From a virus: a stretch of 64,000 bases of DNA. The notes under the pieces were generated by a model. It was not told the DNA's origin. It searched no databases and was given only the letters and a program-made list of their open reading frames with translations. This document shows, in pieces, positions 9,818 through 25,115 of the stretch. Every line of letters begins with the position of its first letter. Position 1 is the stretch's first letter. The position numbers and the translations under genes are program-made. The stretch is from the IMG/VR virus record IMGVR_UViG_3300037071_003688; one strand, 5' to 3'.

Positions 9818-10582
9818 CTACGAGTTGGCGAGTTGGATGAACACAGCCTGCGTCTGAGGGCCGATGATCCCATCCGGCGTCAGCTTGAACGCCGTCTGGA
9901 TGTTCTTCACGGCGGTGACGGTCTGCGCCCCGTACTTGCCGTCAACGATGATCGTCTTCGAGCCGCCGACCGCGCCCGGGGCACGGATCACGGTCTGGAC
10001 CATTGCGACGTCTGGGCCTTCCATACCGGGCTTGATGACACGAGGGAACACGATGGCAACTCCTGACGGTGGAAGCGGTGGCGGGTTGACCGGCGGCGGT
10101 GCGAGGCCGAGACGGGCGGAGATGTCGACAGCGTCACCCCACCCTTCCGGGTTCGTTTCGATGTGGAAGTACGTCGCCCACGCGTCGCCCATCCCCTCGG
10201 CGGTCGTGTTCGTCTTCCACCACGACGTGTGCGCGTCGGCGACACTCGATGTGCGCCCGGCACGCCAGATCCGTGACCCGAAGTAGTCGTGGATCGCCTG
10301 GACGTGCAACTCATGCGAGTTGTCGATCAGGAATGGGATGATCACGTTCTTGGCGGTCAGCCGATCCGGATAGTTGCGGTCCGTCGCCGCGCCCCACCAG
10401 TGGACCGATGGAGTCGTGCCGCCCCGGATCGGACGCTGCCCGTAGCAGCCGTTGTTCGTCATCGCGAACCGTTTACCGAGATAGTTCCCGAGGCAGATCA
10501 GGTTCGGGGAGCAGGTGTGGTACTTCGGGGTGGCCGGGTCGGCGAGCAAACCCCAGTTGTAGAAGTGGGTCTCGACCGACAT
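9818..10582 (-). CDS. Endolysin: M15-like Zn peptidase plus C-terminal peptidoglycan-binding domain
   Basis: RxxRGG..SVHWWGAATD and FHIE zinc-peptidase motifs; C-terminal GPDVAMVQ...VDGKYGAQT...DGIIGPQT; start 10582 (or 10588), not 10915. Confidence 0.85.
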   Translation of the reverse strand: MSVETHFYNWGLLADPATPKYHTCSPNLICLGNYLGKRFAMTNNGCYGQRPIRGGTTPSVHWWGAATDRNYPDRLTAKNVIIPFLIDNSHELHVQAIHDYFGSRIWRAGRTSSVADAHTSWWKTNTTAEGMGDAWATYFHIETNPEGWGDAVDISARLGLAPPPVNPPPLPPSGVAIVFPRVIKPGMEGPDVAMVQTVIRAPGAVGGSKTIIVDGKYGAQTVTAVKNIQTAFKLTPDGIIGPQTQAVFIQLANS

Positions 10583-10625
10583 GGGCATCCAACCTAGTGA
10601 GTCGCAACCCGCGACCGGGGGACCC

Positions 10626-12653
10626 TCAGAACGACGACGCGTACAACGCCAACAGTTCACTGTTCGACGGGCGACCGCGGTACAACCCGGCCCACACGCA
10701 ACCATCCCACGGGTTACCGGCGACGGCGGTGTCGTGTGCGGTGCCAGCGAAGAACAGGAACAGATCGGAGGCGGTCGTGCCCTGCGAATCGAACTGCGGG
10801 CACGGCCACGTCCCGTTCTCGAAGAAATACTCGTCAACGTTGGGACCCTCCGGGTATGCGTTGTCGTCGTGGGCGACCGTGTTGACGCCGCCGCTATCAA
10901 CGACCCACACGCCATACGAACGTGACGCCGGGTCGATGTAGAGCGCGACGAGCAGGTCGATGTCGCGGTCCATCAACGGGTTCGTGATCGTCTCATCCCA
11001 GTACGCCTCGAAGAACGTGCCCTCGCCGATCGAGTCGCCCAGCGACGCGCCGTACAGACCGGAGAAGCCACCGTCGAACGCGAACCCTTCCGCGGAGGGG
11101 GTGACGAAGTCGTATGCGCCGCCGTCGCCGGGGATGATGTCAACCTCGATGTATCCGATCGTGTTCTCGAATGTGCGGTGCCCTGCGGGTAGGGCGAAGA
11201 TGAACGTCGCCGGTCCGGCCGACCAGTCGCCACCCATGTCCGACTCGCTCGGCAATGTCGCGTTCGGCCCGAAGTCCGCGCCGCCCGCCCAGTTGACCTG
11301 CTTCTTCGCGTAGATGACGTCGCCCGGCCCGTCGTCAACGATCTTGAGGTCGAACACCGAGCCAGCCGACCCGGTGTTCGGGAACGTCGCCCCGGCCGTG
11401 ACCGAGGTCAACAGACGCGAATCCCACTTGACGATCGCCGCACCGAGTCCGGTCGATGGTTCGGTGACCGGGGTGCGCCACGGTCGCGGCCCTGCCGCCT
11501 GGTTCGGACTCGGCTGCTCGCGCGGACGGGGGATGAAGATGATCCCGTCGCCCTCACCGAGATCGTTCGCGAGCGCGGCGATGCTGCCGTCAGTGAGCAG
11601 CACGCCGCCGCTAGCGAACCCGGACGCGTCCGGCGCCAGTGTGTGGGTGACGGTCTGTGTTGCCAGGTCGAACCAGTCCCAGTCGCCGTTGTCGAGGTTG
11701 GTGAAGATCGCCGTGGCCGCGTCGGGGCAGCCGACGAACTCGATCTGATGGCCCGGTGTCCACGTCCAGGCGACGGTCGGCGACGACGGCGTCGAAACGT
11801 TGATGCCCTTGAGTCGCATGACGCTGCCGGTGCTGTCGAGCACGTGGACGAGCAGCAGTGAATCGGTGGCCCGCCAGCAGTCGAACGGGATCGACGTCGC
11901 GCCGGTGCCCAACGACGCCGTGCCGACAATGCCCGCCGTCGAGAACACCGACAGGGTTTGACGACCGGCGATCGCCCCGTAGTAGGTGCCCGCGTTCACG
12001 AAGACGTGGTCGACCATGCCGAGCCCGAACACCTGATGTGACAGGTTGAAGGGGCCGTGGTCGGTGACGTTGGCGGTGTCAAAGTCGGAACCGACAATCC
12101 GATACGTGGACCCGCTCAGATGGGTGAACCACAAGACGTTGTTCGGATCGAGGCAGCAGCTAGAGAACCCGGAACCGGAGCCGATCCCGTAGGGGCCGAC
12201 GCTCTTGTTCGTGATCAGGGTGATGTTGGTCGGGTCGCTGAGATCGTAGAGACGCGCCGGGTTCGAGGATTGCGGCGTGTCATAGTGGTTGTTGACGACG
12301 GCGAGCTTCGTCCCGGCCGCCGCCCGTCCACCCCACGGTCGCCTGATCGCCCCGCCAGCCGGGAGCACCAGGAAGTCGAGCACGCCCGTGATGTCAGCGG
12401 TGGCGATCGCTGACAGTTGCCCGTAGAAGTTGATCAGACCGTTCGCCCAGTTCGAGACCTGCACGACGGCGTTCGTCGTCGGGATCGCCCAGCGAGCCTG
12501 CTCCGTGCTGGCCCCCGGGAAGTAACGGTCATCGCGCACCCACACCCCGGGCAGCGGGACACCGCCGAACGGCGAACCGAGGATGTCGATCTTGCCATGT
12601 GTGATCGGGACATCGAACAGCGGCGTGTGCGACGAATCGTGGAAGATCGGCAT
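10626..12653 (-). CDS. Minor tail/receptor-binding protein (beta-propeller-like plus LamG-like domain)
   Basis: LYDLSDPTNITL and INVSTPSSPTV LVIVD-like blades; C-terminal WDSR...NTGSAGSVFDL domain; N-terminal SSHTPLFD. Confidence 0.7.
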   Translation of the reverse strand: MPIFHDSSHTPLFDVPITHGKIDILGSPFGGVPLPGVWVRDDRYFPGASTEQARWAIPTTNAVVQVSNWANGLINFYGQLSAIATADITGVLDFLVLPAGGAIRRPWGGRAAAGTKLAVVNNHYDTPQSSNPARLYDLSDPTNITLITNKSVGPYGIGSGSGFSSCCLDPNNVLWFTHLSGSTYRIVGSDFDTANVTDHGPFNLSHQVFGLGMVDHVFVNAGTYYGAIAGRQTLSVFSTAGIVGTASLGTGATSIPFDCWRATDSLLLVHVLDSTGSVMRLKGINVSTPSSPTVAWTWTPGHQIEFVGCPDAATAIFTNLDNGDWDWFDLATQTVTHTLAPDASGFASGGVLLTDGSIAALANDLGEGDGIIFIPRPREQPSPNQAAGPRPWRTPVTEPSTGLGAAIVKWDSRLLTSVTAGATFPNTGSAGSVFDLKIVDDGPGDVIYAKKQVNWAGGADFGPNATLPSESDMGGDWSAGPATFIFALPAGHRTFENTIGYIEVDIIPGDGGAYDFVTPSAEGFAFDGGFSGLYGASLGDSIGEGTFFEAYWDETITNPLMDRDIDLLVALYIDPASRSYGVWVVDSGGVNTVAHDDNAYPEGPNVDEYFFENGTWPCPQFDSQGTTASDLFLFFAGTAHDTAVAGNPWDGCVWAGLYRGRPSNSELLALYASSF

Positions 12654-12668
12654 CGGACGCGACCCTAG

Positions 12669-14474
12669 CTACGGCGTCGGATACCGATACACGACCCGAC
12701 CGGCCGCGCCAGGCGTGGCCGTCAGACCGAACGCTCCGCCTGCGCCACCTGAACCGGTGTTCGCTGCGGGTGCTACAGCGGCGATGTCGGGGCCGTCCGT
12801 AGCTCCGACAGCGCCGCTGTGAGGAGCCGTCCCGCCGACGTAGGTGCCCGTGAACCGTTGAGCGCCGCCAGGTCCACCATCACCGTAGAAGTCGCCTGAG
12901 CCAGCGGGCCATTCGACGCCTGCGCCGCCGTCACCGGCGTGTCCCGATGTGCTCGACTGAGCGTTCCCACCGTTCGCTGCCGCGCCGCCGCCACCCCCGG
13001 CGCCGAAGTTGTCGGCACCACCAGAGTTGTAGCCGTTACCGCCCGAGTGAACGCCCCCGCCGCCAGTACCACCATGCTGCCCGCCGCCGCCGCCCGCTAC
13101 GCCGCTCGATCCGTTCGCCGTGCCGGACCCGTTCGCGCCGCCGCCCGCGCCACCGGCGAGCGTTGTCGTCGTCGCACCGACGATGACGGTCGGACCACCG
13201 CTCGACCCGTTCGAGTTCGGGACGACTGTGCCGCCAGGGCCGATCGTGATGACCTCCGGGACCGTGATGACCCCGGTCGTAACGTCGTACTCGCCGTTGC
13301 CACCGCCACCGCCGGTCCGCTCCGAGCCAGGATCGCCACCCGCCGCGCCGCCCGCGATAGCGAACCGTTCGATCGGCGCGGGATAGCCGTTCGGGTCGAA
13401 CGTCCCGTCCGCCGTGAACGTGTGATACGTGTATCCGCCGTCCGTCGTGATCGTCCCGCCGGTCGGGATCGGGACCACGTACGGCGTGGTCGCTTGCAGC
13501 CAGATCTCGTGGATCTGGGTCAGAGTCGGCTTGCTCGTTGGACGCCACAAACCTTTGGTCGTGCAGCAGTTCCAGGCCGTGCCGAGACCGGGCAGCGATG
13601 GCCCGGCGTGGTAGCCGATCCCCCAGTACATTCGCACCATCGCCGTCTCGGCGGCTTCGGCCGCGACCGCGCCGCCGTAGGCGTCGAGGTCATCTTCCAT
13701 CTCGAACCATTCGTTGGGTGCAGGTGGGCTGACGGGGAACTCCTCGGCACCGTCAGCCGTGAACGTGTGCTCGAACTCGGTCAGCCCACCTGCGCCGTCG
13801 TAGATGAAGTCCCACATCGTGCGAGTGGCAGCGTCGAAGTAGTGACCGAACAGGTAGTTGCTTGGGTCCGTGATCGAGTTGTCGGCTCCCCATGCTTCGA
13901 TGTCGGTGAACTGATAGAGCAGACCGGCGAAGGCGACGTCCCAGAAGCTCTCTTGAAACCCCTCGAACATCGTGGGGTTGCCCGTGTCCTCGTAGAGGTA
14001 TGTCGAACCGACACCGACCTGAATCCCGTCCCCGGCTACGTCGGTGAAGAACCATTCGCACTCGGACCCGGTCCAAGCCTCAGTCGGCACGCCGGTGCCG
14101 CGGAGCGCGGTGAGGATCGTGGAGGGCAGGACGGTCACCATCAGGAACGCGGCGGTCGTAGGCGGCCCTCCGAGATCGTCCCAGCCGGTCGGGAACGACG
14201 ATCCGCTGTCCGGCTGGGCGAAGTAGTTGTATCGCTTGATCGCCCACCAGTCCCCCGTCCAGGGGCCGCCGCTTCGATCCTCGATCGGTAGATCGAAGAC
14301 CGCGCCCGCCGTGCCCAAGTTGAGCAGGTCGCTCGTGCCACCATCATGGTGGCGTGTGTCGTAGTAGATCACCGGCGCTGGGAGCGGCGGCAACGGCGAC
14401 ACGGCAACGACGGACCCTCTGCTCTTGGGCGGGTCGAACAGCGGCTTGTGCGACGACTCGCGGCGGTGCGGCAT
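12669..14474 (-). CDS. Minor tail protein (LamG-like plus C-terminal glycine-rich domain)
   Basis: Start MPHRRESSHKPLFD at 14474 (TGATG with the sulfotransferase); TGGTITTDGGYTYHTFTADGTF...GGGG...GRVVYRY glycine-rich domain. Confidence 0.75.
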   Translation of the reverse strand: MPHRRESSHKPLFDPPKSRGSVVAVSPLPPLPAPVIYYDTRHHDGGTSDLLNLGTAGAVFDLPIEDRSGGPWTGDWWAIKRYNYFAQPDSGSSFPTGWDDLGGPPTTAAFLMVTVLPSTILTALRGTGVPTEAWTGSECEWFFTDVAGDGIQVGVGSTYLYEDTGNPTMFEGFQESFWDVAFAGLLYQFTDIEAWGADNSITDPSNYLFGHYFDAATRTMWDFIYDGAGGLTEFEHTFTADGAEEFPVSPPAPNEWFEMEDDLDAYGGAVAAEAAETAMVRMYWGIGYHAGPSLPGLGTAWNCCTTKGLWRPTSKPTLTQIHEIWLQATTPYVVPIPTGGTITTDGGYTYHTFTADGTFDPNGYPAPIERFAIAGGAAGGDPGSERTGGGGGNGEYDVTTGVITVPEVITIGPGGTVVPNSNGSSGGPTVIVGATTTTLAGGAGGGANGSGTANGSSGVAGGGGGQHGGTGGGGVHSGGNGYNSGGADNFGAGGGGGAAANGGNAQSSTSGHAGDGGAGVEWPAGSGDFYGDGGPGGAQRFTGTYVGGTAPHSGAVGATDGPDIAAVAPAANTGSGGAGGAFGLTATPGAAGRVVYRYPTP

Positions 14475-15271
14475 CAGTACCCGAAGGTCTGGTGGAACAG
14501 CGGCCAACGCCCCTTGATCTGCGCGGCGAGGTCATCGGGAACGAGGTCCGCATCGACGGGCCGCTGCTCGACCTGCCCGGAGCCGTCATGGGGGAACTTG
14601 AAGCGATACAGAGCGTCGGCGTCGGTGGCGACCGACACGACCTTGTCGAAGTCGTAGTCGAACGGCTCAAGACCGAGATGCTTGTCGATACCACGCATCG
14701 CGACATCGGGGGCAGCGGTGAAGCCCTCGTACACGGCGAAGAACACGAACGGGATGCCGGACTGCGTGAACGGACGACGGCGGATCATGTCCTCGACCGC
14801 GGCGATCGGACCGCCGATCATGCCGCCCTGGGAGAACATGACGTTCGCTTTGTCCCACAACGGTTCGTGTGGGCCGTACTCGGCGGTGGCCCGATGCTGC
14901 TTCTCGATTGAGGCGAACACGTCGCGTGGGTGGCGGACGGCGGCGACCATGCGGGCGTCGGGGTACAGGCGTTGCAACAACAGGTAGCTCCACCCCCAGC
15001 CCCGCGACTTGTCGACTACGAGGCGACCGTCGTCGGGATGCCAGTTGTTGACGATGCCCCGCAACACGGACACGTTGCGTTCACGCGCCTCGGGCAGGCC
15101 GATCAGATCCGACGTGACTTCCGGCGAGTTCGTCAGGAACTCCGACATCTTGGCGAGCGCACCCGGCAGACCGGATGTCGATGAGACCGTGACGTCGTCG
15201 CGTTGGGCGAGCAGGTTGCACAGCAGCGTCGACCCGGAGCGGGGCAGACCGGCGAGCGTCGCGATCCTCAT
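14474..15271 (-). CDS. Sulfotransferase (PAPS-dependent, Sulfotransfer_3-like)
   Basis: 5'-PSB loop GLPRSGSTLL, DKSRGW, 3'-PB motif VRHPRDVFAS, YE...P...MRGIxxHLGLEPF. Confidence 0.9.
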   Translation of the reverse strand: MRIATLAGLPRSGSTLLCNLLAQRDDVTVSSTSGLPGALAKMSEFLTNSPEVTSDLIGLPEARERNVSVLRGIVNNWHPDDGRLVVDKSRGWGWSYLLLQRLYPDARMVAAVRHPRDVFASIEKQHRATAEYGPHEPLWDKANVMFSQGGMIGGPIAAVEDMIRRRPFTQSGIPFVFFAVYEGFTAAPDVAMRGIDKHLGLEPFDYDFDKVVSVATDADALYRFKFPHDGSGQVEQRPVDADLVPDDLAAQIKGRWPLFHQTFGY

Positions 15272-15561
15272 ACGTCCTTCGTCTCCTCCGTCCCGACATC
15301 GACCACCGATGCCGCCGCGGCGACGGCGTCGCGTTCGACTTGGATGACACGTTCGGATGCTTCGACAGCAACTTCGATGTCGACTTCCTCGACGGTGAGC
15401 CGCGGCGGCAGTGACGGCACCCGGTCAGCGATGACAGTGATCGCACCATCTTCGTCAACGGTGAATGATGACACCGGTCCCTGGCTTTGTGTCGCGAGGC
15501 GGCGCAACGCGATCTTCTGGGTGCGCTCTGGGTCGTCGCCGGTGATGCGGAAGGTGGGCAT
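15268..15561 (-). CDS. Hypothetical protein (97 aa, MPTFRITGDD...)
   Basis: RBS AGGAG before ATG 15561; ATGA overlap with the sulfotransferase. Confidence 0.65.
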   Translation of the reverse strand: MPTFRITGDDPERTQKIALRRLATQSQGPVSSFTVDEDGAITVIADRVPSLPPRLTVEEVDIEVAVEASERVIQVERDAVAAAASVVDVGTEETKDV

Positions 15562-15569
15562 TGGTTCTC

Positions 15570-16712
15570 CTATGTGATCTTGACGGACACGCCGCCCGAG
15601 CGGATGTAGACGTAGCCGCCAGCGATCCACCACGCCCCGAGCGCCGGGGAGGCCGGGGCACCGTTCGTGTAGACGTGGAAGTCGTTGCCGACCTGGAACG
15701 AATCGGCGACGGCGTTCGTGCCCGGCGCGAACTGCACAGCCCCAGCGGCGGAAGCGACGATCGACTCGCCAGGCTGAGCGTCACCGAAAGCAAACGCACC
15801 TAGCGCCGAAGCGGTGATCAAACCATTGGAACTCGTCGCGGCGACAGCATGACCACCAGCGAACGCTCCCTTGGCGGAGGCCCAGATCCGTGCCAACGCG
15901 GGCGATGCCACGTCGGCGTTGGCGTATCCGAATGCGAGTGCGCCACGCGCTTCGGCATGGACCTGCGCATACGACGTCGTATGCGTCACATCACTCCCGG
16001 TGTAGGCGAATCCGAACGCCCAGCCCTCGGACGTCCTGACCAGCGCCCCGACACCGTACGCGGTGCCGAGCGCGGTCCCTTGCGTCGCGTAGATGTGCCC
16101 GCCGTATGCGGCGTATCCGAAGGCGAGTCCGGCGAATCTGCCCTCGATCGACGTGATGGTCGAGCCGGTCGTCTCGTTCCAGTGGGCCACGTAGCCGCCC
16201 GCCCAGCCGTAGCTCGCATGGATACCCACGGTCGAGCCAGCGCCGGACGCGAACCCGCCACCCACAACCAGCGCAGGGCCATGCAGAGAAAGGCTGGCGT
16301 CACCGCCGTCCTCGCCGTAGATGTAGCCGCCGCAAAGTCCCAACGTGGCGGTCCCGTCTATTTGCCCGGTGGCGGCCCCATCGGTGCCTGCGTACCCGAA
16401 CACGATCCCGCCCGCGTTGTTGGCACTGCTCACGCACGCGAACTCGCCGGTCCCACCCGTCCGTCCGACGACGACGAGACCGGGCTGCACGTCGGCGTGT
16501 GTGATCTTCGTGCCGGGCGGTGTGAACGTTCCGGACGGATAGCCGAGAGAGTTGGCGACGGTCGCCCCGTCACCCACCTTGACGCCGATGCGGCCAGCGG
16601 CACCGGTCAGGCGAACCAACCCCAGTTCTCCGTCGAGCAGCGTCGGGTTGTCCGAGGCCCAGTCCGCCTGTGTGGCACGCTTGATCTGGCCGGGTCCGTT
16701 CAGGGCGGTCAC
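15570..16712 (-). CDS. Tail fibre with Mtd_N/hyaluronidase-N-like domain and YadA-head-like repeats
   Basis: IKRATQADWASDNPTLLDGELG...KVGDG...LGY N-terminus; repeated GAFAFG/GALAFG motifs. Confidence 0.8.
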   Translation of the reverse strand: MTALNGPGQIKRATQADWASDNPTLLDGELGLVRLTGAAGRIGVKVGDGATVANSLGYPSGTFTPPGTKITHADVQPGLVVVGRTGGTGEFACVSSANNAGGIVFGYAGTDGAATGQIDGTATLGLCGGYIYGEDGGDASLSLHGPALVVGGGFASGAGSTVGIHASYGWAGGYVAHWNETTGSTITSIEGRFAGLAFGYAAYGGHIYATQGTALGTAYGVGALVRTSEGWAFGFAYTGSDVTHTTSYAQVHAEARGALAFGYANADVASPALARIWASAKGAFAGGHAVAATSSNGLITASALGAFAFGDAQPGESIVASAAGAVQFAPGTNAVADSFQVGNDFHVYTNGAPASPALGAWWIAGGYVYIRSGGVSVKIT

Positions 16713-16713
16713 G

Positions 16714-16923
16714 TCAGCACACTACGTCGAAGTCGATCGTGTCCGAGCCACTCCCCGCCGACGTGCCACCATCCCACGAATCCGAACCTGATCCGGCCGA
16801 CGTGCCACCATCCCAGCCGCAGAAGTCAAGTGCGACCCCGCCCGGCACGAGATCGCGCGGCGCCGCCATCCGTTTGATCTTGCCCGGGTCGAACACCGGT
16901 GTGTGCGAGGAACGATGCCGCAT
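16714..16923 (-). CDS. 69-aa fibre adaptor peptide (SSHTPVFD plus 2x WDGGTSAGSGSD)
   Basis: Fills the gap between hub and Mtd_N fibre genes; shares an N-terminal motif with two RBPs; exact 12-aa tandem repeat. Confidence 0.7.
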   Translation of the reverse strand: MRHRSSHTPVFDPGKIKRMAAPRDLVPGGVALDFCGWDGGTSAGSGSDSWDGGTSAGSGSDTIDFDVVC

Positions 16924-16924
16924 G

Positions 16925-18766
16925 TCAGATCTTCGTGACGCCGAGATCGCCGAGCGTGCCCATCGACTTGCCGCCGATCGAACGCAGCAACTTGCCCTGC
17001 GCCTGGTCGAGACTCAACCACGGGTGGCCGCACTCCAACGACCAGATCGCGTACCCCTTCTCGTCGGTGTTGCAGCCGATCGACAACACCTGCACTTCCT
17101 CGGTGCCACCATCATCGGTCGGCACCGTCACATAGTCGCCGACCTCGAACCCGACGTACGGCGTGTCACCCGACCCGGCCGGTTCGATCGCGATCCGGAT
17201 CGCGACGTCAGCGTCGCGCGCCGCTCTGGCGAGTTCGATCCGGCCCTGCCGTTCGGCGTCCTCGGCGATGCCCGCCTCGGTCGACAAGGTGTCGGCAACG
17301 ACCGCGCCGAACGATGCCTGTGCGGCGAGATCGTCAACCCACACAAACCCCTTCGCCCACTGCACCTTCAACCGGTTGGCGTAGACGCGGGTCGGGCCGC
17401 GCTCCATGCCGTCCTCACCGATGTTGACGCCCTCAACGAACGACACCCCGGATGACACACCGCCAGACCCCTGCGCCCAGCATTCGAGTGTCAACGTGTC
17501 CGGCTTGAAGTGCCAGTCGATCCAACCTTCCTGGTGCAACTGTTCGAGGAGCTTGCCGCCGGTCTCACCCTGCTTCATCGCGAACCACGGCACGAACTCC
17601 ATCTCGGTGTCCGGATCCGCCGAATCCCAGTCGCCGCCGTTCGAGTCGGTGAAGTCGGTGAACGTCTCACCGGCGTGTTGCGTCATCTCGCCCCGCGCCT
17701 GGCACTCGGCGATGAACTCCTGCAAGATCTGACCAGGCGTATAGCCGGGCCATTCTTCGAGCGTCGTCGCGAAGTACGACACCCAGTCCGCGGCGTTCGA
17801 CAGGAGCAGCCCGATGCCCTCGGACATCTCGACCTCGTCAGGCCAGATCGCCATGGCGATAGCGGCGAACAGAAGACCGGCCGGGTTCGATGTCAAGTCG
17901 GGGACGTACACGTTCTCGACCATCATCCCGACCAACCAGAACGCGGCGGGGAGTTCGAGCGAGATCTCTTTCCAGCCGGTCCACATCAACAAGTCGGCTT
18001 CCTCCGACAAGGCCGGGATCCCATGCAGGTGGAAGTCGAACAGGTTGTCGGCGGTGACCGTGAACTTCGTCAACTGGGTCCCGGCGAGACCGAATCCGCC
18101 GCGGAAGAAATGCCAGCCGATCGCCGTCTCCGTTGAACCATCGGCGATCGTCCAGTACGTCGGCACGTACGTCGGGGTCGGCGAGAACCCGTCGCCGTTG
18201 TGCGGCGCCCACGGCCACGGAAACGCGAGCGGAGCGGGCACGAGGTCGTAGATCGGTTCGTCGGTGATCTCGTCGGTCGCCGACTGCACCTTGAGGACAC
18301 GCGCCCCGTAGGCGACGCCGTCCTTGTACTCGTACAGTTCGGTCGGCGCACCCCAGCCCCCGGCGTTCGGGAAGTTCGGCGACGCCCACGACCAGTTCCG
18401 TGTCGACGGATCGAGGTCAGCCCCGGCGGGGACGTCGACGTCCACGATCCCGTTGTTCCACACGCACCCCCAGCCATCGCCGGTCATGACGAGCACGTTG
18501 CCGGTCTTCGGTCGCCGGGCGGTGGCGGTCCGCTTGGCGTCGATGCGGAACGTGAACCGTCGCACCCCGCCGACCTTGATCGCGATGAACCGGCCCCTCG
18601 TGCAGGCGGCACGGTCCGAGTCGTTCATCGCGATCGAGCAGTTCCCGCTCCCGAACCCGTTGTAGCCGTCGATGAAGCCCATCCCGAACGCTCCGTCGAG
18701 TGCCGTGACCAACGTCGTGGTGTCGGTGTCGTACAGGTCGGCTGAGAGCTTGAGTGGGTTGCCCAC
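16925..18766 (-). CDS. Baseplate hub/Tal-like minor tail protein
   Basis: 613 aa directly after Dit; NGFGSGNCSI N-terminus and C-terminal PYVGFEVGDYVTV...VLSI hub motif. Confidence 0.75.
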   Translation of the reverse strand: MGNPLKLSADLYDTDTTTLVTALDGAFGMGFIDGYNGFGSGNCSIAMNDSDRAACTRGRFIAIKVGGVRRFTFRIDAKRTATARRPKTGNVLVMTGDGWGCVWNNGIVDVDVPAGADLDPSTRNWSWASPNFPNAGGWGAPTELYEYKDGVAYGARVLKVQSATDEITDEPIYDLVPAPLAFPWPWAPHNGDGFSPTPTYVPTYWTIADGSTETAIGWHFFRGGFGLAGTQLTKFTVTADNLFDFHLHGIPALSEEADLLMWTGWKEISLELPAAFWLVGMMVENVYVPDLTSNPAGLLFAAIAMAIWPDEVEMSEGIGLLLSNAADWVSYFATTLEEWPGYTPGQILQEFIAECQARGEMTQHAGETFTDFTDSNGGDWDSADPDTEMEFVPWFAMKQGETGGKLLEQLHQEGWIDWHFKPDTLTLECWAQGSGGVSSGVSFVEGVNIGEDGMERGPTRVYANRLKVQWAKGFVWVDDLAAQASFGAVVADTLSTEAGIAEDAERQGRIELARAARDADVAIRIAIEPAGSGDTPYVGFEVGDYVTVPTDDGGTEEVQVLSIGCNTDEKGYAIWSLECGHPWLSLDQAQGKLLRSIGGKSMGTLGDLGVTKI

Positions 18767-19266
18767 TACGCGAAGCGTCCCTCAAGGATCGTGCCGGTCA
18801 TCACGAACTCGACCAGCGACAGATCGTCAATCGGATGCGCGAGCTTGAGCGGGTCGAACTGCACGTGCGCCTGCTGCGTAGCGCCGGACGGCTTGACCAG
18901 CGTGCAAAGACGGGCACCATCACCGGTCGTGACCGGGTTGAACACACCGGCGTTGAGGAGACCGATGTTCGTTTCGAGACCGACCGTTGAATCCGCGTAC
19001 GGCGTCCCGGCAGCGTTGAAGTCGCCGGTCACCCAGAACACGAGCGAGAACGGGCATTCGTCGTATTCCTTCGGGTAGCCGACACGGCCGGGAGACGAGG
19101 GGACGACACGGTTCTCACCGACGTAGCTCCGCTCGAACCACAACGTCGTGAGGTCCTGCACCATCCACCCCCACGTGTTGAGCGGGAAGTCCGGTGCATC
19201 TTCGATCGTGAGCGTGCCGTAGCAGTTGGGCGCGCAGCCGAACGGGTGATAGGCGGTGTACGTCAT
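18766..19266 (-). CDS. Distal tail protein (Dit-like)
   Basis: 166 aa directly after tape measure; GENRVVPSSPGR motif. Confidence 0.7.
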   Translation of the reverse strand: MTYTAYHPFGCAPNCYGTLTIEDAPDFPLNTWGWMVQDLTTLWFERSYVGENRVVPSSPGRVGYPKEYDECPFSLVFWVTGDFNAAGTPYADSTVGLETNIGLLNAGVFNPVTTGDGARLCTLVKPSGATQQAHVQFDPLKLAHPIDDLSLVEFVMTGTILEGRFA

Positions 19267-22200
19267 CGGAGCAGTCTCCGCATCTCATCGAGGAACTCGA
19301 ATGCCTTGCGCCGGTTGTTGGATCCGTCGCCGAGATACAGCTTGTCGACCATCACACGATCGACGTACTCCTCCTGCGTGAGCGGGGTCCGCGTCGCCTG
19401 GATCGCCTCGATCATCGCCTGACGGACGACGCGCCCGTCGACGCCACGAGCGTCATGGCCGCGCTCGGCGAGCGCCCTGAACATGCGGTCCAGTTCGGGG
19501 AGCACGACCGGCGGCGACTCGAACACGTTGGTTTCGGATGTCACGTCGGGCATACCTCGTGGACGCACGTCGAGGTCGAGGATCTCCGCGACCTTCATGA
19601 ACACGCCGAGCGCCCCGACGCGCTTGCCCATTCCGAGCGGGATGTACGCCTCGCCGCCGGTTTCGGGTTCGGCCCAGATCCGCGGGCCGCGTGCGATCTG
19701 AGCGGTGTGCGGCGCGTCCATCGTCCCGAAGCCGTGGATGCCGCCCTCGGCGAAGGCACCGCCGCCCTTCCCGAAGATGTCCTCCAACACCGACTGCGGT
19801 GTGTTCCTGCCGGGTCGGCTCCGAGAGGGCGGCGTCACGATGGGCGCGTCGAGGTTGCCGCCGAGTGCGACGGGTATCAGATCCTTGAACTGCTCCGCGA
19901 TCGCCTGCCTCTTGGCGTCATCGACGGCCACTTGCACGTTCTCGATGTTCAACTCGGCCGGAAGTTGAATCGGCGGATCTTGCGATTCGAGCAGCGTCCG
20001 AAGATCTGTCATCTCCTTGTCGATGTCGATGAACTCGGTCTTCAACTCGACAGTGTTCTTGCCGCTGGCGTTGACCTCCTCGACCTGGTCGAGGATCGCC
20101 TGGGTGGCTTCCGCGGCCAACTCCTCCGGCGTCTTGAACTGGGCGGCGACCAGCGCCGGGCCACCGAACCCTTCGAGCCGCTCGACCTGTTTCGCCTCCT
20201 CGACCTGGGCGATGCGTTCGTTGATCGTGGCCAACACTTCCTTCGCCCGGAGATCAATGATCGCCTTGTCGAGTGGAGCGACGTCGATCTCGATCGCCGG
20301 GTGATCCGTGGCGAACGCCTTGAGATCTTCGCGTTGCTTCTCAAGGTCAGCGATCTGCACGTCGAGTTGGACGTCGGTCGGGTCGGTCTGCTGCGCGGCC
20401 TCGACATCCTCGTTGAACGCCGCGACCGCGGCCTGCGCTGCCTGTTCGGCGCCGAGCGCGACCCGGTCGGCGGGCCACACCTGGGCGATGAGTTGGTCGA
20501 CGGTCGTCGGGTCGATGCCACCATCAATGAGCGACTGGCGGAACGGGGCGAGGAACGCTTCGGCTGCGCGTGCCCCGGCGAGCGGATCGGTGAGACCGAT
20601 CGACGCTGCCCGGTCGAGCGCGTCCTGGACGGTGTTCACGATGCCGTCCTGGAAGAACGCTTGCGCCTCCGGTGTCGGTGCCGCCAACAGGAAGTCGAAG
20701 AACGAAAGGTTCGCCTCGGCGGCTTGCGCCGTCAACTGCTGCATCAACGTCGTCGGGACGGTCGACAGTTCCGCCATCTCGGCGCGGACGTCGGCGAGTT
20801 TCTTCAACTCGTCGTCAATCCGATCCTGAATGTCACGCTGGTCGTCGGCGACCTCGTTGGCGACACGAGCGCGGCGGGCGCGAAGCTCGGCGGCACGGTT
20901 CACGAGGCCGAGCGCGTCGGCCTGCGCGATGTCATCATCGAACGCCGACAGCTTGTCCTGACCATCGCGCACGGCCCGGGCAAGCTGCTCTTTGAGATCG
21001 CCCAGCCGGTTCTGCGACTCGTCAATGTTCTTCGTCAGACCTTCGGCTTTCTTGAGGTCATCCTCGTTGACGATGCCGGTCAACGACTTGGTGATGTCAC
21101 GGAAGTCCTGGTCGAGGTTCTGGCTGGCGACCGTCAGATCGAGCTTGGCGCCGATCGAGTCGAGCACGTCACCGAACCGCTTGAACGCGGCAGTGGCCTT
21201 GTCGGCAGCGGATTCGGCTTGCTCGCCGAGCAGCTTGGCCTGCTCGCGGAGTTCCTCCATCGTGATGCCGTCATCGAGGAGCGCCTGCTTCCAGTCGGCC
21301 AACGCCTTGTTGGCCGTGTCGACGGCGTCGGCGGTGTCATCGCCGAGACCCTTCGCGGCATCACCAGTCGCCGACATTGCGTCCCCGAGGACGAACGCCT
21401 TATCGGCAGCGGCATCGGTGCCCGCCACGATGTCCCCATACAGGGTGGGCAGTCCCTCAAGATCCTTGCGGGAATCACCGATCGCGTTGATGACATCGTT
21501 GACCTGTTGGAGGTTGGCGGTCGGGAACTGAATGGTGAGAGCACTGAGCAGGTCGCCCTCATCCTTGATGGCGACCAGGTCTCCGAGCACTGCATCGGAG
21601 ATGCCAAGGTTCTTGACCGCATCCTTCGTCGCTGTCAGCCGGACGATAAGTCCATTCATGAACTTGCCGAACTGCTCCTCGCCTGCGAGTGCCTCTTGGC
21701 GGATGGTTTCCTTGTCGATGCCCAGCGACCGGAGCAGGGTGAACCCTTGCGGGCCGAGCGCCTCGTCCACCAGGTCGGCGAACACTCGACTGTTGATGAC
21801 CCCCTTGAGATTGATGAGATCGTCGGAGAACTCGGATCGGATCTTGTCAGCGAGTGATTCGATCGACCGTTCGAGTTCCTCTGCCTCTCTCTGGCCGTCG
21901 ATGAAGCCTTGAGCGATGAGACCGACCCCGACACCGATGGTGGCGAAGATGCCGCCCGGCACGCCGCCGGTGGCGAGTCCGGTCAACACGGAACCGATCG
22001 CGCCGACCGCGCCGGTGATCCGGGTGGCCGCGTCCTCGGAGGCGAGCGCCATCCCCGAGAAGGCGCCTGCGATGGCGACACCGAAGCCCTGCGCCACGGC
22101 CCCCGACTTGGTGAGGTTGGCAACCTCGGACCGCACCGCCTGGAAACTGGACTGTCCCGCGGCTCGGAACTCCCCGAAGTCGCTGACCGCTGTCTTGAGG

Positions 22201-25115
22201 GTGCCGGACAAGCGGCCCACTGACGTGGAGATCCCGGTGATCTGTGTCTGGAAGAAACTGACGGCCTTGAACCCGAGGAACACTCCGAGCAGTGTTTGCA
22301 GGACGCCGACCGGGATGTCGCCGATCAACTCGCCGACCACGGTCAGGACCGGGATGAGCACCTCGCCCACGGCCTGAGTGACGTTGAGGAGAGTCTCGAA
22401 GGCGGGCACAAGATCGGTCGCGGCCAACACCAACTGGTTGACGACCGGCGCCGCGGCCTCGGCCACGCCGGTGACAAGCGCGATGCCCTGGGATGCGGCA
22501 CGGAACGCAGTCGGCAACGCGTCTTGGGCGAACGTGACGATGTTGTCGAGGATCGGTGTGATCTTCGGGCCGAGTTCACCGATCGAACCGAACGCCTGTG
22601 TGAACAGTGTTTGGATCTCGGGGCCGATGTCCTTGAGCACGCCGAGCGCACGCACGACGACAGGGGCGACGCCCTGGATGCCTTCGCCGATGCCCTCGAC
22701 CAGGGTGCCGCCGATCTCAAGGCCGACGTCACCCAACTCTCTGAGAGCGGGGATCAGAGCGTCGCGGATCTCGGGGGTGAGCAACGCCGCCGACGCGGCG
22801 AACACGGTGAGCGCACCGGTCAGAGTCGTGATGCCCGGGATCAGCCTCCCGAACGGGCCGAGCACGGCGCCGAGCGCGCCGAGGCCGAGCGCGCCGAACG
22901 CGATCCCGAGCGGAGCGAGCGCCGGGCCGAGACCTTCGAGGGCGTCGATCGTCGGCTCGATCAGATCCGGGGCGTTCTCGAAGAACTGGTTGAAGGCGTC
23001 GAACACCGGACCCTCAACGAGAGCCGCCATGACCGGCTCGATCCGAGCACCCAACTGGTCGAATACGGCGGTGAACGACTTGAACCCGGCGATCAACGTG
23101 TCCGAGATCGGCTCGATGATCTTGACGCCGAAGCGGGCGCGGGCGGCACCGAAGTTCTCGATCGACCCCGACAGGGTGTCGCCGAGCTTCTCCATCGTGC
23201 CCGAGAAGGCGACCGTGGCGCCGTTGATCCCCTCGGTGCCGTGGAGGATGCCTTGTGTGATCGCGTCGAGAGCGAACTCGGAGGTGATCGCCCCCTCCGA
23301 GATCATCTTGCGGATCTCCTCGGTGGTCTTGCCGACTGTGTTGCCGAGGATTCGCAGCACGTCGACGCCGACGTTGCCGAACTGCCAGACGTCCTCACCA
23401 TTGATCCGGCCGATCGCCTGGATCTGACCGAAGATCGTGGCGAGCGACTGGGCGAACTGGTTGGCTTGCGAGCCGCGGGTGGCGGCAGCCTCACCGATCG
23501 CGGTGAGGAACAACGGCACCTTCTCCGCCGCGATGCCGAACGCGATCATGTTCGTCGCGGCACGCGCGAAGTCGTCCAACCGGAACGGCGTCCCACGCAC
23601 GACGTTCAACACGTCGCTCAACACCTGCGCTGCTGCCGACGCCGATTGGAGAGCGACCGTCAGCGAAGCGGTCGAGTCCTGGATCGTCGTGAACCGTTGG
23701 AAGCCTTCCGCCAGACTGGTCGCGAACACCCCGCCGATCGTGAGCGCGGCGGTCGCCAGGACCCGCTGGGTTGTCGTCGCGAACTGTCGACCGAACGCGC
23801 TCCCGGCTCGATCCCCGGCCCGCTCGAAGTCGTGCTCGGCGTCGGTCCCGAACGCCGTGACCTGAGCTTGCGCCGGGGCGAGGTTAGCGTTGACCGGAAC
23901 GACGACCGGCGGAACGTTCGGTGGCGGCGGTGGCGGTGGCGGCGGGCCGAGCACGGTCGGGATGACGACCGGCTGGAAGCTCGCGCCGCCGCTCGTGATG
24001 CGGGCGAGATCGGCGAGCAACTGTTGGGCGTCGACCACGACCGGTAGGCGCACCGGGTCGGCGTCGACAGCGGCGATGTCGGCCTGGGCCTGGTCGACGT
24101 CGGCGACGGCAGGAATGACGACCGGCGGAATGTTGGTGCCGAACGCCGTGAGATCGGCGTGGGCTTGATCATCGTCAAGACCGATCCGGACGAGGACGCC
24201 CTCCGATTGGAGTTGGGCCATCTCCGCCCGGAACCGGGCCAGCCCGGGGCTGGCCTCAATCCCGGGGCCGACCCCGGCTGCCGTGACCGGCACTTCGAGC
24301 GGCGGAAGATCCACCTTGGCGACGGCGGGCGGCACCTCGGACACGTCGGGCAGGACGCGCAGGATGACTGGCGGAAGGCTGTCGAGGGCGGTGGTGACCT
24401 CGCGCGGCACCTCGCTGACATCAGCTTGGAACTTGACCGTGAACGGCCCCTCGGGCAACTCGCTGATCGGCGCCACGGCCGGGATGACGGGAGTGGGGGT
24501 GGGCGCCACGGCGGTCGTGACGGGCACGACGATGTCGAGCGTGGTGAGCGCGACAAGCTCGCTGATCGCCTGGTCGGTGTTGACGACGACCGGGACCTCA
24601 ACGACGACGTCGAGTGTGGAGAGGGCGACGATGTCACTGAGTGCCTGCTCGACGTTGGCGAGGACCGGAAGCTCGATGATGGTTTCGCTGCCTTCGAGTC
24701 CGGCGATCTCACCTTCGGCCGCTTCGATGTTGGCGGTGACCGGGACCTCGACCACGACACCGAGCGTGGTGAGAGCGACGAGGTCGGCCAGCGCGGCGTC
24801 GGTGTCGAGCGTGACCGGCACGACAATGCCAGCGCCGATCGCGTCGAGGTTGACGATCTCTCCGAGCGCCTGCTCGGCGTCGGCGATGATCGGCACCGTG
24901 ATCGGCGGGACCGCCTGGTTCAACCGGTCGAGGCCGGTGGCGATGTTCCGCAACGCGTTCTGGTCGACGGTGACAGCGACCTTGATCGCCATGTCCGCTT
25001 CGAGCCGGGTCGCCTTCGCGATCAGTTCACGACGGATCCGTTCCCAGTCGGCGTTGGCTTTGGCGTCGCTCAGTCGGATGTCGGCCGCAGCCTGAGCAAC
25101 AGTCCGAATCGCCAC
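19263..25115 (-). CDS. Tape measure protein (1950 aa)
   Basis: Ala/Leu-rich helical repeats; RFTTIQDSTASL...VRGTPF tape-measure domain; C-terminal FAEGG...WAEPETGGEAYIPL. Confidence 0.93.
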   Translation of the reverse strand: MAIRTVAQAAADIRLSDAKANADWERIRRELIAKATRLEADMAIKVAVTVDQNALRNIATGLDRLNQAVPPITVPIIADAEQALGEIVNLDAIGAGIVVPVTLDTDAALADLVALTTLGVVVEVPVTANIEAAEGEIAGLEGSETIIELPVLANVEQALSDIVALSTLDVVVEVPVVVNTDQAISELVALTTLDIVVPVTTAVAPTPTPVIPAVAPISELPEGPFTVKFQADVSEVPREVTTALDSLPPVILRVLPDVSEVPPAVAKVDLPPLEVPVTAAGVGPGIEASPGLARFRAEMAQLQSEGVLVRIGLDDDQAHADLTAFGTNIPPVVIPAVADVDQAQADIAAVDADPVRLPVVVDAQQLLADLARITSGGASFQPVVIPTVLGPPPPPPPPPNVPPVVVPVNANLAPAQAQVTAFGTDAEHDFERAGDRAGSAFGRQFATTTQRVLATAALTIGGVFATSLAEGFQRFTTIQDSTASLTVALQSASAAAQVLSDVLNVVRGTPFRLDDFARAATNMIAFGIAAEKVPLFLTAIGEAAATRGSQANQFAQSLATIFGQIQAIGRINGEDVWQFGNVGVDVLRILGNTVGKTTEEIRKMISEGAITSEFALDAITQGILHGTEGINGATVAFSGTMEKLGDTLSGSIENFGAARARFGVKIIEPISDTLIAGFKSFTAVFDQLGARIEPVMAALVEGPVFDAFNQFFENAPDLIEPTIDALEGLGPALAPLGIAFGALGLGALGAVLGPFGRLIPGITTLTGALTVFAASAALLTPEIRDALIPALRELGDVGLEIGGTLVEGIGEGIQGVAPVVVRALGVLKDIGPEIQTLFTQAFGSIGELGPKITPILDNIVTFAQDALPTAFRAASQGIALVTGVAEAAAPVVNQLVLAATDLVPAFETLLNVTQAVGEVLIPVLTVVGELIGDIPVGVLQTLLGVFLGFKAVSFFQTQITGISTSVGRLSGTLKTAVSDFGEFRAAGQSSFQAVRSEVANLTKSGAVAQGFGVAIAGAFSGMALASEDAATRITGAVGAIGSVLTGLATGGVPGGIFATIGVGVGLIAQGFIDGQREAEELERSIESLADKIRSEFSDDLINLKGVINSRVFADLVDEALGPQGFTLLRSLGIDKETIRQEALAGEEQFGKFMNGLIVRLTATKDAVKNLGISDAVLGDLVAIKDEGDLLSALTIQFPTANLQQVNDVINAIGDSRKDLEGLPTLYGDIVAGTDAAADKAFVLGDAMSATGDAAKGLGDDTADAVDTANKALADWKQALLDDGITMEELREQAKLLGEQAESAADKATAAFKRFGDVLDSIGAKLDLTVASQNLDQDFRDITKSLTGIVNEDDLKKAEGLTKNIDESQNRLGDLKEQLARAVRDGQDKLSAFDDDIAQADALGLVNRAAELRARRARVANEVADDQRDIQDRIDDELKKLADVRAEMAELSTVPTTLMQQLTAQAAEANLSFFDFLLAAPTPEAQAFFQDGIVNTVQDALDRAASIGLTDPLAGARAAEAFLAPFRQSLIDGGIDPTTVDQLIAQVWPADRVALGAEQAAQAAVAAFNEDVEAAQQTDPTDVQLDVQIADLEKQREDLKAFATDHPAIEIDVAPLDKAIIDLRAKEVLATINERIAQVEEAKQVERLEGFGGPALVAAQFKTPEELAAEATQAILDQVEEVNASGKNTVELKTEFIDIDKEMTDLRTLLESQDPPIQLPAELNIENVQVAVDDAKRQAIAEQFKDLIPVALGGNLDAPIVTPPSRSRPGRNTPQSVLEDIFGKGGGAFAEGGIHGFGTMDAPHTAQIARGPRIWAEPETGGEAYIPLGMGKRVGALGVFMKVAEILDLDVRPRGMPDVTSETNVFESPPVVLPELDRMFRALAERGHDARGVDGRVVRQAMIEAIQATRTPLTQEEYVDRVMVDKLYLGDGSNNRRKAFEFLDEMRRLLR

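Follow-up and report, generated by a model that had tools for sequence, protein, structure and literature searches.

Three proteins encoded in the tail module of an uncultured actinobacterial phage (IMG/VR record IMGVR_UViG_3300037071_003688; 147,492 bp, estimated 97% complete, about 65% G+C) carry the same short peptide, SSHxPxFD, close to their N-terminus. The peptide is exclusive to these three proteins, its N-terminal position is fixed, a module boundary follows it, and the genes lie in a context of tape measure, distal tail protein (Dit), hub, tail-protein and lysin genes. With a probability of about 0.55, the three N-terminal modules would represent a common docking arm that fixes three unlike bodies to one type of socket at the tail tip. 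The window, that is, the whole stretch of 64,000 nucleotides that was analyzed, corresponds to bases 69,200-133,199 of the record. All feature coordinates below are window positions, and the three proteins are referred to as W1, W2 and W3.

A Conserved Peptide at Three Protein Starts

The three N-termini exist exactly as written in the preliminary description, which had read them as an address tag, and all of them lie on the minus strand. W1 begins at position 12653 with MPIFHDSSHTPLFDVP (open reading frame (ORF) 12653..10626, 675 aa), W2 at 14474 with MPHRRESSHKPLFDPP (ORF 14474..12669, 601 aa) and W3 at 16923 with MRHRSSHTPVFDPG (ORF 16923..16714, 69 aa). The core of the tag reads SSHTPLFD in W1 (residues 7-14; 12612..12635), SSHKPLFD in W2 (residues 7-14; 14433..14456) and SSHTPVFD in W3 (residues 5-12; 16888..16911), and begins 4-6 residues behind the initiator methionine. 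One phage thus carries a short conserved peptide at the extreme N-terminus of three ORFs, with the core within residues 5-14. The ATG of W1 and that of W3 are the first starts in their open frames. The ATG of W2 overlaps with the stop codon before it (TGATG); translation of W2 might also begin at a TTG 11 codons further upstream, but this is less likely. The complete module comprises about 30-36 residues, with the SSH[T/K]P[L/V]FD core, a Gly-containing turn and a Pro-rich linker, and in all three proteins the shared part ends at approximately residue 30-36, inside the Pro-rich stretch.

Across all six frames of the 147,492-bp genome, SSH.P.FD, SH.P.FD and H[TKRS]P[LVIM]FD are each present in three copies, located only at W1, W2 and W3, and looser forms of the motif yield no further copy at any protein start. 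From composition, 0.006 copies of SSHxPxFD are expected vs the three observed, and none appears in 100 triplet shuffles. A hidden Markov model (HMM) of the tag module, built on the first ~36 residues, matches only the ORFs of W1, W2 and W3 (E 1e-15 to 1e-19), the next best hit having E 0.27.

The core is identical at 8-9 of 10 positions among the three copies, while the next ~35 residues are only about 25-35% identical. At the nucleotide level, the 24-nt cores differ by 2-5 bases between copies; the changes are either silent (TCG/TCC, ACG/ACA, GAT/GAC) or conservative replacements (T/K and L/V). The regions upstream of the three ATGs, including the ribosome-binding sites, have no sequence in common, which indicates that conservation begins with the coding sequence. 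No further copy of the 24-mer is present in the genome, and neither a copy nor a complement occurs on the other strand at up to 6 mismatches. The tag is under stronger selection than its flanks.

Bodies of the Three Tagged Proteins

Behind the tag (residues ~1-30), W1 is predicted to consist of a seven-bladed propeller (~30-390) and a LamG-like region (~400-675). In the Atlas structure search, to be taken only as a lead, residues 30-386 align to seven-bladed propellers of the YncE/lactonase type with target-normalized template modeling (TM) scores of 0.64-0.76 and whole-query scores of 0.35-0.41. The Atlas feature search, likewise a lead only, points to Laminin_G_3 clusters (feature score 0.93, best cluster viral), and W1 itself has no Pfam match. 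Since the propeller of the Atlas model begins at about residue 30, the tag is left as a free extension.

In W2, the tag (~1-30) is followed by a predicted LamG-like region (~31-330) and a Gly-rich stretch (366-598); this Gly-rich C-terminal half matches phrog_2295 (E 1.9e-14) and Gly_rich_2 (E 0.004). The AlphaFold2 model of W2 alone is poor, with a predicted local distance difference test (pLDDT) score of 32. Residues 403-612 of W1 (10818-11447) match residues 31-258 of W2 (13701-14384) with 25% identity and E 1e-4, which places a lectin-like domain directly behind the tag in W2 and behind the propeller in W1. The preliminary description had called the N-terminal regions otherwise different. 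The bodies do differ as wholes (propeller plus LamG-like; LamG-like plus Gly-rich; repeats), but W1 and W2 share the LamG-like domain at different positions.

W3 contains little besides the tag: a short linker leads to two exact copies of the 12-residue repeat WDGGTSAGSGSD (16741-16815, minus strand). The codons of the two copies differ at 5 of the 12 positions, all of them synonymously and including TCA/AGT for Ser, which indicates that the ORF is under protein-level selection and is a real gene. The repeats may serve as a binding repeat for the untagged fibre-like protein with an Mtd_N match that is encoded next. The ATG of W3 lies 1 nt past the hub stop (TGAcATG) and the GTG of the fibre gene 1 nt past the W3 stop (TGAcGTG), and this identical stop-start layout at both junctions (16710-16927, minus strand) suggests coupling by termination and reinitiation. 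Expression of W3 and the fibre as a +1 fusion was considered and rejected: a shift would be needed at TGC TGA C, a stop lies three codons upstream in the fibre frame, and neither a slippery site nor a stimulator is found there. As the fusion lacks support, W3 and the fibre gene are treated as two coupled genes.

The Candidate Socket

The candidate socket of the tag is the protein at the Tal or baseplate hub position (16925..18766, minus strand; 613 aa), encoded by the second gene after the tape measure. In tblastn against INPHARED, it gives only matches of 22-25% identity, such as those to the minor tail proteins that Huwbert and KellEzio encode at the equivalent place, and Sipho_Gp37 matches 3 of 11 members of its family (best E 5e-4). 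The AlphaFold2 model, built on 11 sequences, is of low confidence (pLDDT 41), and its best structural matches are hub proteins. This low-confidence model aligns with the Bxb1 tail tip (9d93_Oa) with Z 9.8 and a root-mean-square deviation of 15 over 148 residues (Foldseek E 2e-3), and with Douge (8zdo_s) with Z 7.2.

Three considerations favour the hub over Dit as the partner: the Dit-like protein has only 166 aa, both W3 and a tag-like gene of a related lineage (L009, see below) lie directly behind the hub gene, and the N-arms of mycobacteriophage fibres provide precedents (PMC13033339, PMC13252515).

In the alignment of Tal homologues (40-77% identity), the last ~25 residues (LLRSIGGK..GS..D.G..K) are nearly invariant, and this C-terminal element is strongly constrained. 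One homologue of 728 aa (P0005/P0020) is extended at its N-terminus by 111 residues that contain repeated xVG[VL]D motifs; the extension may stem from a wrongly called start or from fusion to the gene upstream. No Tal-tag fusion of the Rosetta stone kind was found among the homologues: all of them share the conserved C-terminal end, and the extra 111 residues of P0005 are N-terminal.

N-Termini in Related Phages

The closest Tal relatives are 59-77% identical, and the set P0002-P0008 spans 44-77%. A locus search with Tal, the W1 family and the propeller protein of L009 recovered only one related phage lineage (L005/L007/L009; Tal 44% identical), and none among genome contigs. In L009, the gene right behind Tal starts with MARARPSYLRPHQPIFRQRIIHG, followed by an LVIVD propeller (E 2.5e-37).

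The orthologue of W1, P0012, is 65% identical overall and 61-71% in the body; its residues 1-35, which start with MSHDHPLRAIFDPP, are only 31% identical. It probably comes from the phage of the Tal homologue P0011 (40% identical), because each of the two is found on three contigs, with a longest contig of 51,749 bp in both cases. In P0013, the W1 body from residue 33 on stands behind a different N-terminal module, an LVIVD propeller (E 1.6e-28), and four further proteins (P0014-P0017) have only the C-terminal, shared LamG-like domain in common with W1, their N-termini being unrelated. P0013 (1311 aa, on a JGI contig of 5,724 bp) carries no tag. In this protein, the LVIVD propeller precedes the W1-like body with its propeller and lectin parts, which is followed by a Big_12-like domain and one more C-terminal domain. 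The start of P0013 lies roughly at the point that corresponds to the end of the tag in the L009 protein, and may therefore be miscalled.

These comparisons point to a module boundary at about residue 30-35, where relatives have other N-termini. The similarity of the tags within the genome exceeds, in the alignments, their similarity to the N-terminus of the orthologue. The N-terminal module thus appears to evolve separately from the bodies, being uniform within one phage and different between phages, as would be expected if every copy has to fit a single partner in its phage. This is in keeping with a docking peptide that is specific to the phage.

In the two relatives whose equivalent N-termini could be compared, a loose HxP[LIV]F / [LIV]FDPP theme is present, although it is not significant alone, and homology of the tag across phages is best regarded as suggestive. 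Conservation of the motif in relatives had been proposed as a check on the tag, and its absence, together with a lack of binding to hub or Dit, as a refutation. Half of this refutation holds: exact SSHxPxFD is not conserved in relatives, and only a loose version occurs in two of them.

Proposed Docking Role

In the mechanism that would account for these findings, the N-terminal module of ~30-36 residues in W3, W2 and W1 acts as a common docking arm, and the socket would most probably be the trimeric hub encoded just upstream. In this arrangement, W1 would contribute a propeller with a lectin-like part, W2 a lectin-like part with a Gly-rich one, and W3 a mini-protein of 69 residues. Grafting behind the tag could bring in new bodies, and this would account for the different relatives of the bodies. 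We infer the binding by the tag itself, the identity of the partner as the hub and not Dit or another tail protein, and the number of copies of each protein per virion.

The suggestion that the tag is a plug-in address peptide is consistent with its N-terminal location on three different modules downstream of the hub gene, with selection stronger than on the flanks, with greater similarity within the genome than to the orthologue and with the module boundary behind it, but is weakened by the lack of conservation of the exact motif. The further suggestion of mixed or competing receptor-binding proteins at equivalent sites is pure conjecture.

Several observations weigh against a docking role. 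The exact motif was not found in IMG/VR, where the codon pattern searched was limited to Thr/Asn/Lys at the first variable position and to TCS Ser codons, and it is absent from all fetched relatives. The HMM of the three window tags does place the N-termini of two relatives in the top two positions among 1,820 sequences, but the E values are only 0.14 and 0.31. Only W2 itself was found with its residues 1-340 in 5.8 billion proteins, and W3 has no homologue among proteins of 37-121 aa in the same collection, so that the tags of these two proteins cannot be traced in relatives. The assignment of the hub draws on synteny, weak sequence matches and the low-confidence model, and that of W1 and W2 as putative virion proteins on gene position and predicted lectin-like domains alone.

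Alternative Explanations

The explanation that survives best besides docking, although it is unlikely, is that the tags bind each other, forming a hetero-oligomeric stem, or bind a partner outside the baseplate, serving as a handle for an assembly chaperone or a modifying enzyme such as the product of the 97-aa ORF or the sulfotransferase. The sulfotransferase gene and the small 97-aa ORF do lie between the tagged genes, but no link between the sulfotransferase and the tag was found. Fibre chaperones usually act on C-terminal parts, which argues against a chaperone handle at the N-terminus. Mutual binding would agree with the presence of exactly three tagged proteins and a threefold hub, and with the heterotrimeric accessory complex gp35/36/37 of mycobacteriophage Mysterious (PMC13252515). 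However, only one tag-like protein follows Tal in the relative L009, and hetero-assembly therefore cannot be the ancestral role. A more elaborate arrangement, in which the three tags co-assemble on the threefold hub as a defined mixed set per tip, made up of one propeller-lectin module, one lectin/Gly-rich module and the mini-protein W3, and the WDGGTSAGSGSD repeats recruit the untagged Mtd_N fibre to give an asymmetric, multi-specific siphophage tip, is decidedly improbable.

Very little probability is also assigned to the tag as a recombination linker or relic, that is, the leftover start of a resident gene that carries grafted foreign bodies and does not itself serve in binding. Phage fibre genes commonly undergo mosaic exchange at conserved 5' ends, and both the small number of differences between the 24-nt cores (only 2-5 bases) and the different relatives of the bodies would be compatible with such an origin. 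What speaks against it is the pattern of change: the codons flanking the core are strongly diverged on both sides while the core is unchanged, and inside the core only synonymous changes and conservative replacements are observed. Moreover, ~24 nt is very short for homologous exchange, and the distance of the tag from the N-terminus is fixed in all three genes.

That the stretch is conserved as a signal in the mRNA, for translation control or as a small-RNA target, is hardly credible: the core is well conserved also as nucleotides, but there is no shared upstream or ribosome-binding sequence, the spacing from the ATG is not constant, with W3 departing by 6 nt, the other strand holds no 24-mer copy or complement at up to 6 mismatches, and the third-position changes are silent.

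Organization of the Tail Module

All genes of the tail module lie on the minus strand, in the order tape measure, Dit-position gene, Tal/hub-position gene, W3, 380-aa fibre-like gene, 97-aa ORF, sulfotransferase, W2, W1 and endolysin. The actinophage order of tape measure, distal tail protein and hub, with fibre or receptor-binding protein genes behind the hub, is thus present, and the genes from W3 through W1 are tightly coupled. The tape measure protein (19263..25115; 1950 aa) matches PHROG tape measure families (best E 6e-31). The Dit-like protein (18766..19266; 166 aa) has no Pfam or PHROG match and is assigned by position only, between tape measure and hub; relatives L007 and L009 have a 166-aa counterpart at the same place.

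The fibre-like protein of 380 aa (15570..16712) carries no tag. Its residues 9-51 match Mtd_N with E 3.5e-4, which is under the Pfam cut-off, and it also matches PHROG tail fibre and tail assembly families (E 7e-6 to 7e-5). The 97-aa ORF (15268..15561), in coding frame between the fibre and sulfotransferase genes, has no PHROG match and no assigned function. The sulfotransferase (14474..15271; 265 aa; Pfam Sulfotransfer_3, E 7.8e-12) is translationally coupled and sits between the fibre genes and W2. The module is closed by the endolysin ORF (9818..10915), which matches PG_binding_1 (E 2.9e-10) and PHROG endolysin families. This 365-aa ORF overlaps the 3' end of W1 by ~290 nt, and its true start is probably an internal ATG near 10585 (MPMSVETHF...), downstream of the W1 stop.

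Among the cultured phages of INPHARED, neither megablast of the tail module nor tblastn of W1, W2 and the 380-aa fibre gave matches, and the genes behind the Tal counterparts carry no tag. The minor tail proteins of Bxb1 have neither a tag nor a shared N-terminus, and sequence searches of the PDB returned no meaningful match.

Comparison with Known Systems

Short conserved N-terminal peptides dock secondary receptor-binding proteins in K1-5, K1E and SP6 (7 and 11 residues), in G7C and in several groups of Klebsiella phages; they differ between phage groups and can sit on truncated proteins, as in group C of the KP32viruses (PMC6872550). The docking role of such peptides was confirmed by engineering in 2026 (PMC13352976). 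The preliminary description had taken the tag for a second peptide code, independent of the fibre operon. As a kind of code it is not new, since docking peptides of this type have been reported from other phages and confirmed by experiment (PMC6872550, PMC13352976).

The architecture found here resembles that of the systems described by Latka in 2019 and 2026, in which receptor-binding proteins of a single phage, unrelated in their other parts, begin with a short peptide (7 to a few tens of residues). In those systems, the peptide varies from one phage group to another, the bodies are exchangeable, and some truncated proteins retain only the peptide. Those systems belong to podophages and myophages of Gram-negative hosts and use a T4gp10-like socket, whereas the present genome is high in G+C and of siphophage type, and its peptide is unrelated. 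Their bodies are beta-helix depolymerases, in contrast to the propeller and lectin-like bodies predicted here, and the first tagged gene here lies directly behind the hub. The Pfam and PHROG scans listed no gp10-like family for the tail-module proteins; the published work used HHpred. Given that no T4gp10-like domain was detected, that the peptide has an unrelated sequence and that both phage type and folds are different, the three proteins are not classified as members of the conserved-peptide/branching-domain system.

The second point of comparison is provided by the mycobacteriophages, whose central fibre proteins anchor through N-arms to the fibre-binding domain of the hub (PMC13033339, PMC13252515). 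Douge, Claus, Corndog, Mysterious and Bxb1 (PDB 8zdo, 9d93) resemble the present phage in the order tape measure, distal tail protein, hub and fibre, and in a hub of ~590-610 aa. In these phages, the hub trimer has a fibre-binding domain or cavity in which the protein encoded behind the hub is anchored by its N-terminal segment. Their N-arms, however, have a greater length (64-164 residues seen) and are part of a single homotrimeric fibre, and no peptide common to several proteins is reported (PMC13033339, PMC13252515).

The docking principle is thus already known from other phages, and the present case would be a variant of it. If confirmed, it would extend the principle, so far shown for podophages and myophages that infect Gram-negative bacteria, to a siphophage-type tip whose modules are of the propeller and lectin kinds. 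Should the tag be a docking element, it would mark the exchange point of host-recognition modules in poorly sampled large actinobacterial phages and offer a simple rule for finding their receptor-binding genes, and W3, a tag-only protein of 69 residues, would lend itself naturally to testing the socket.

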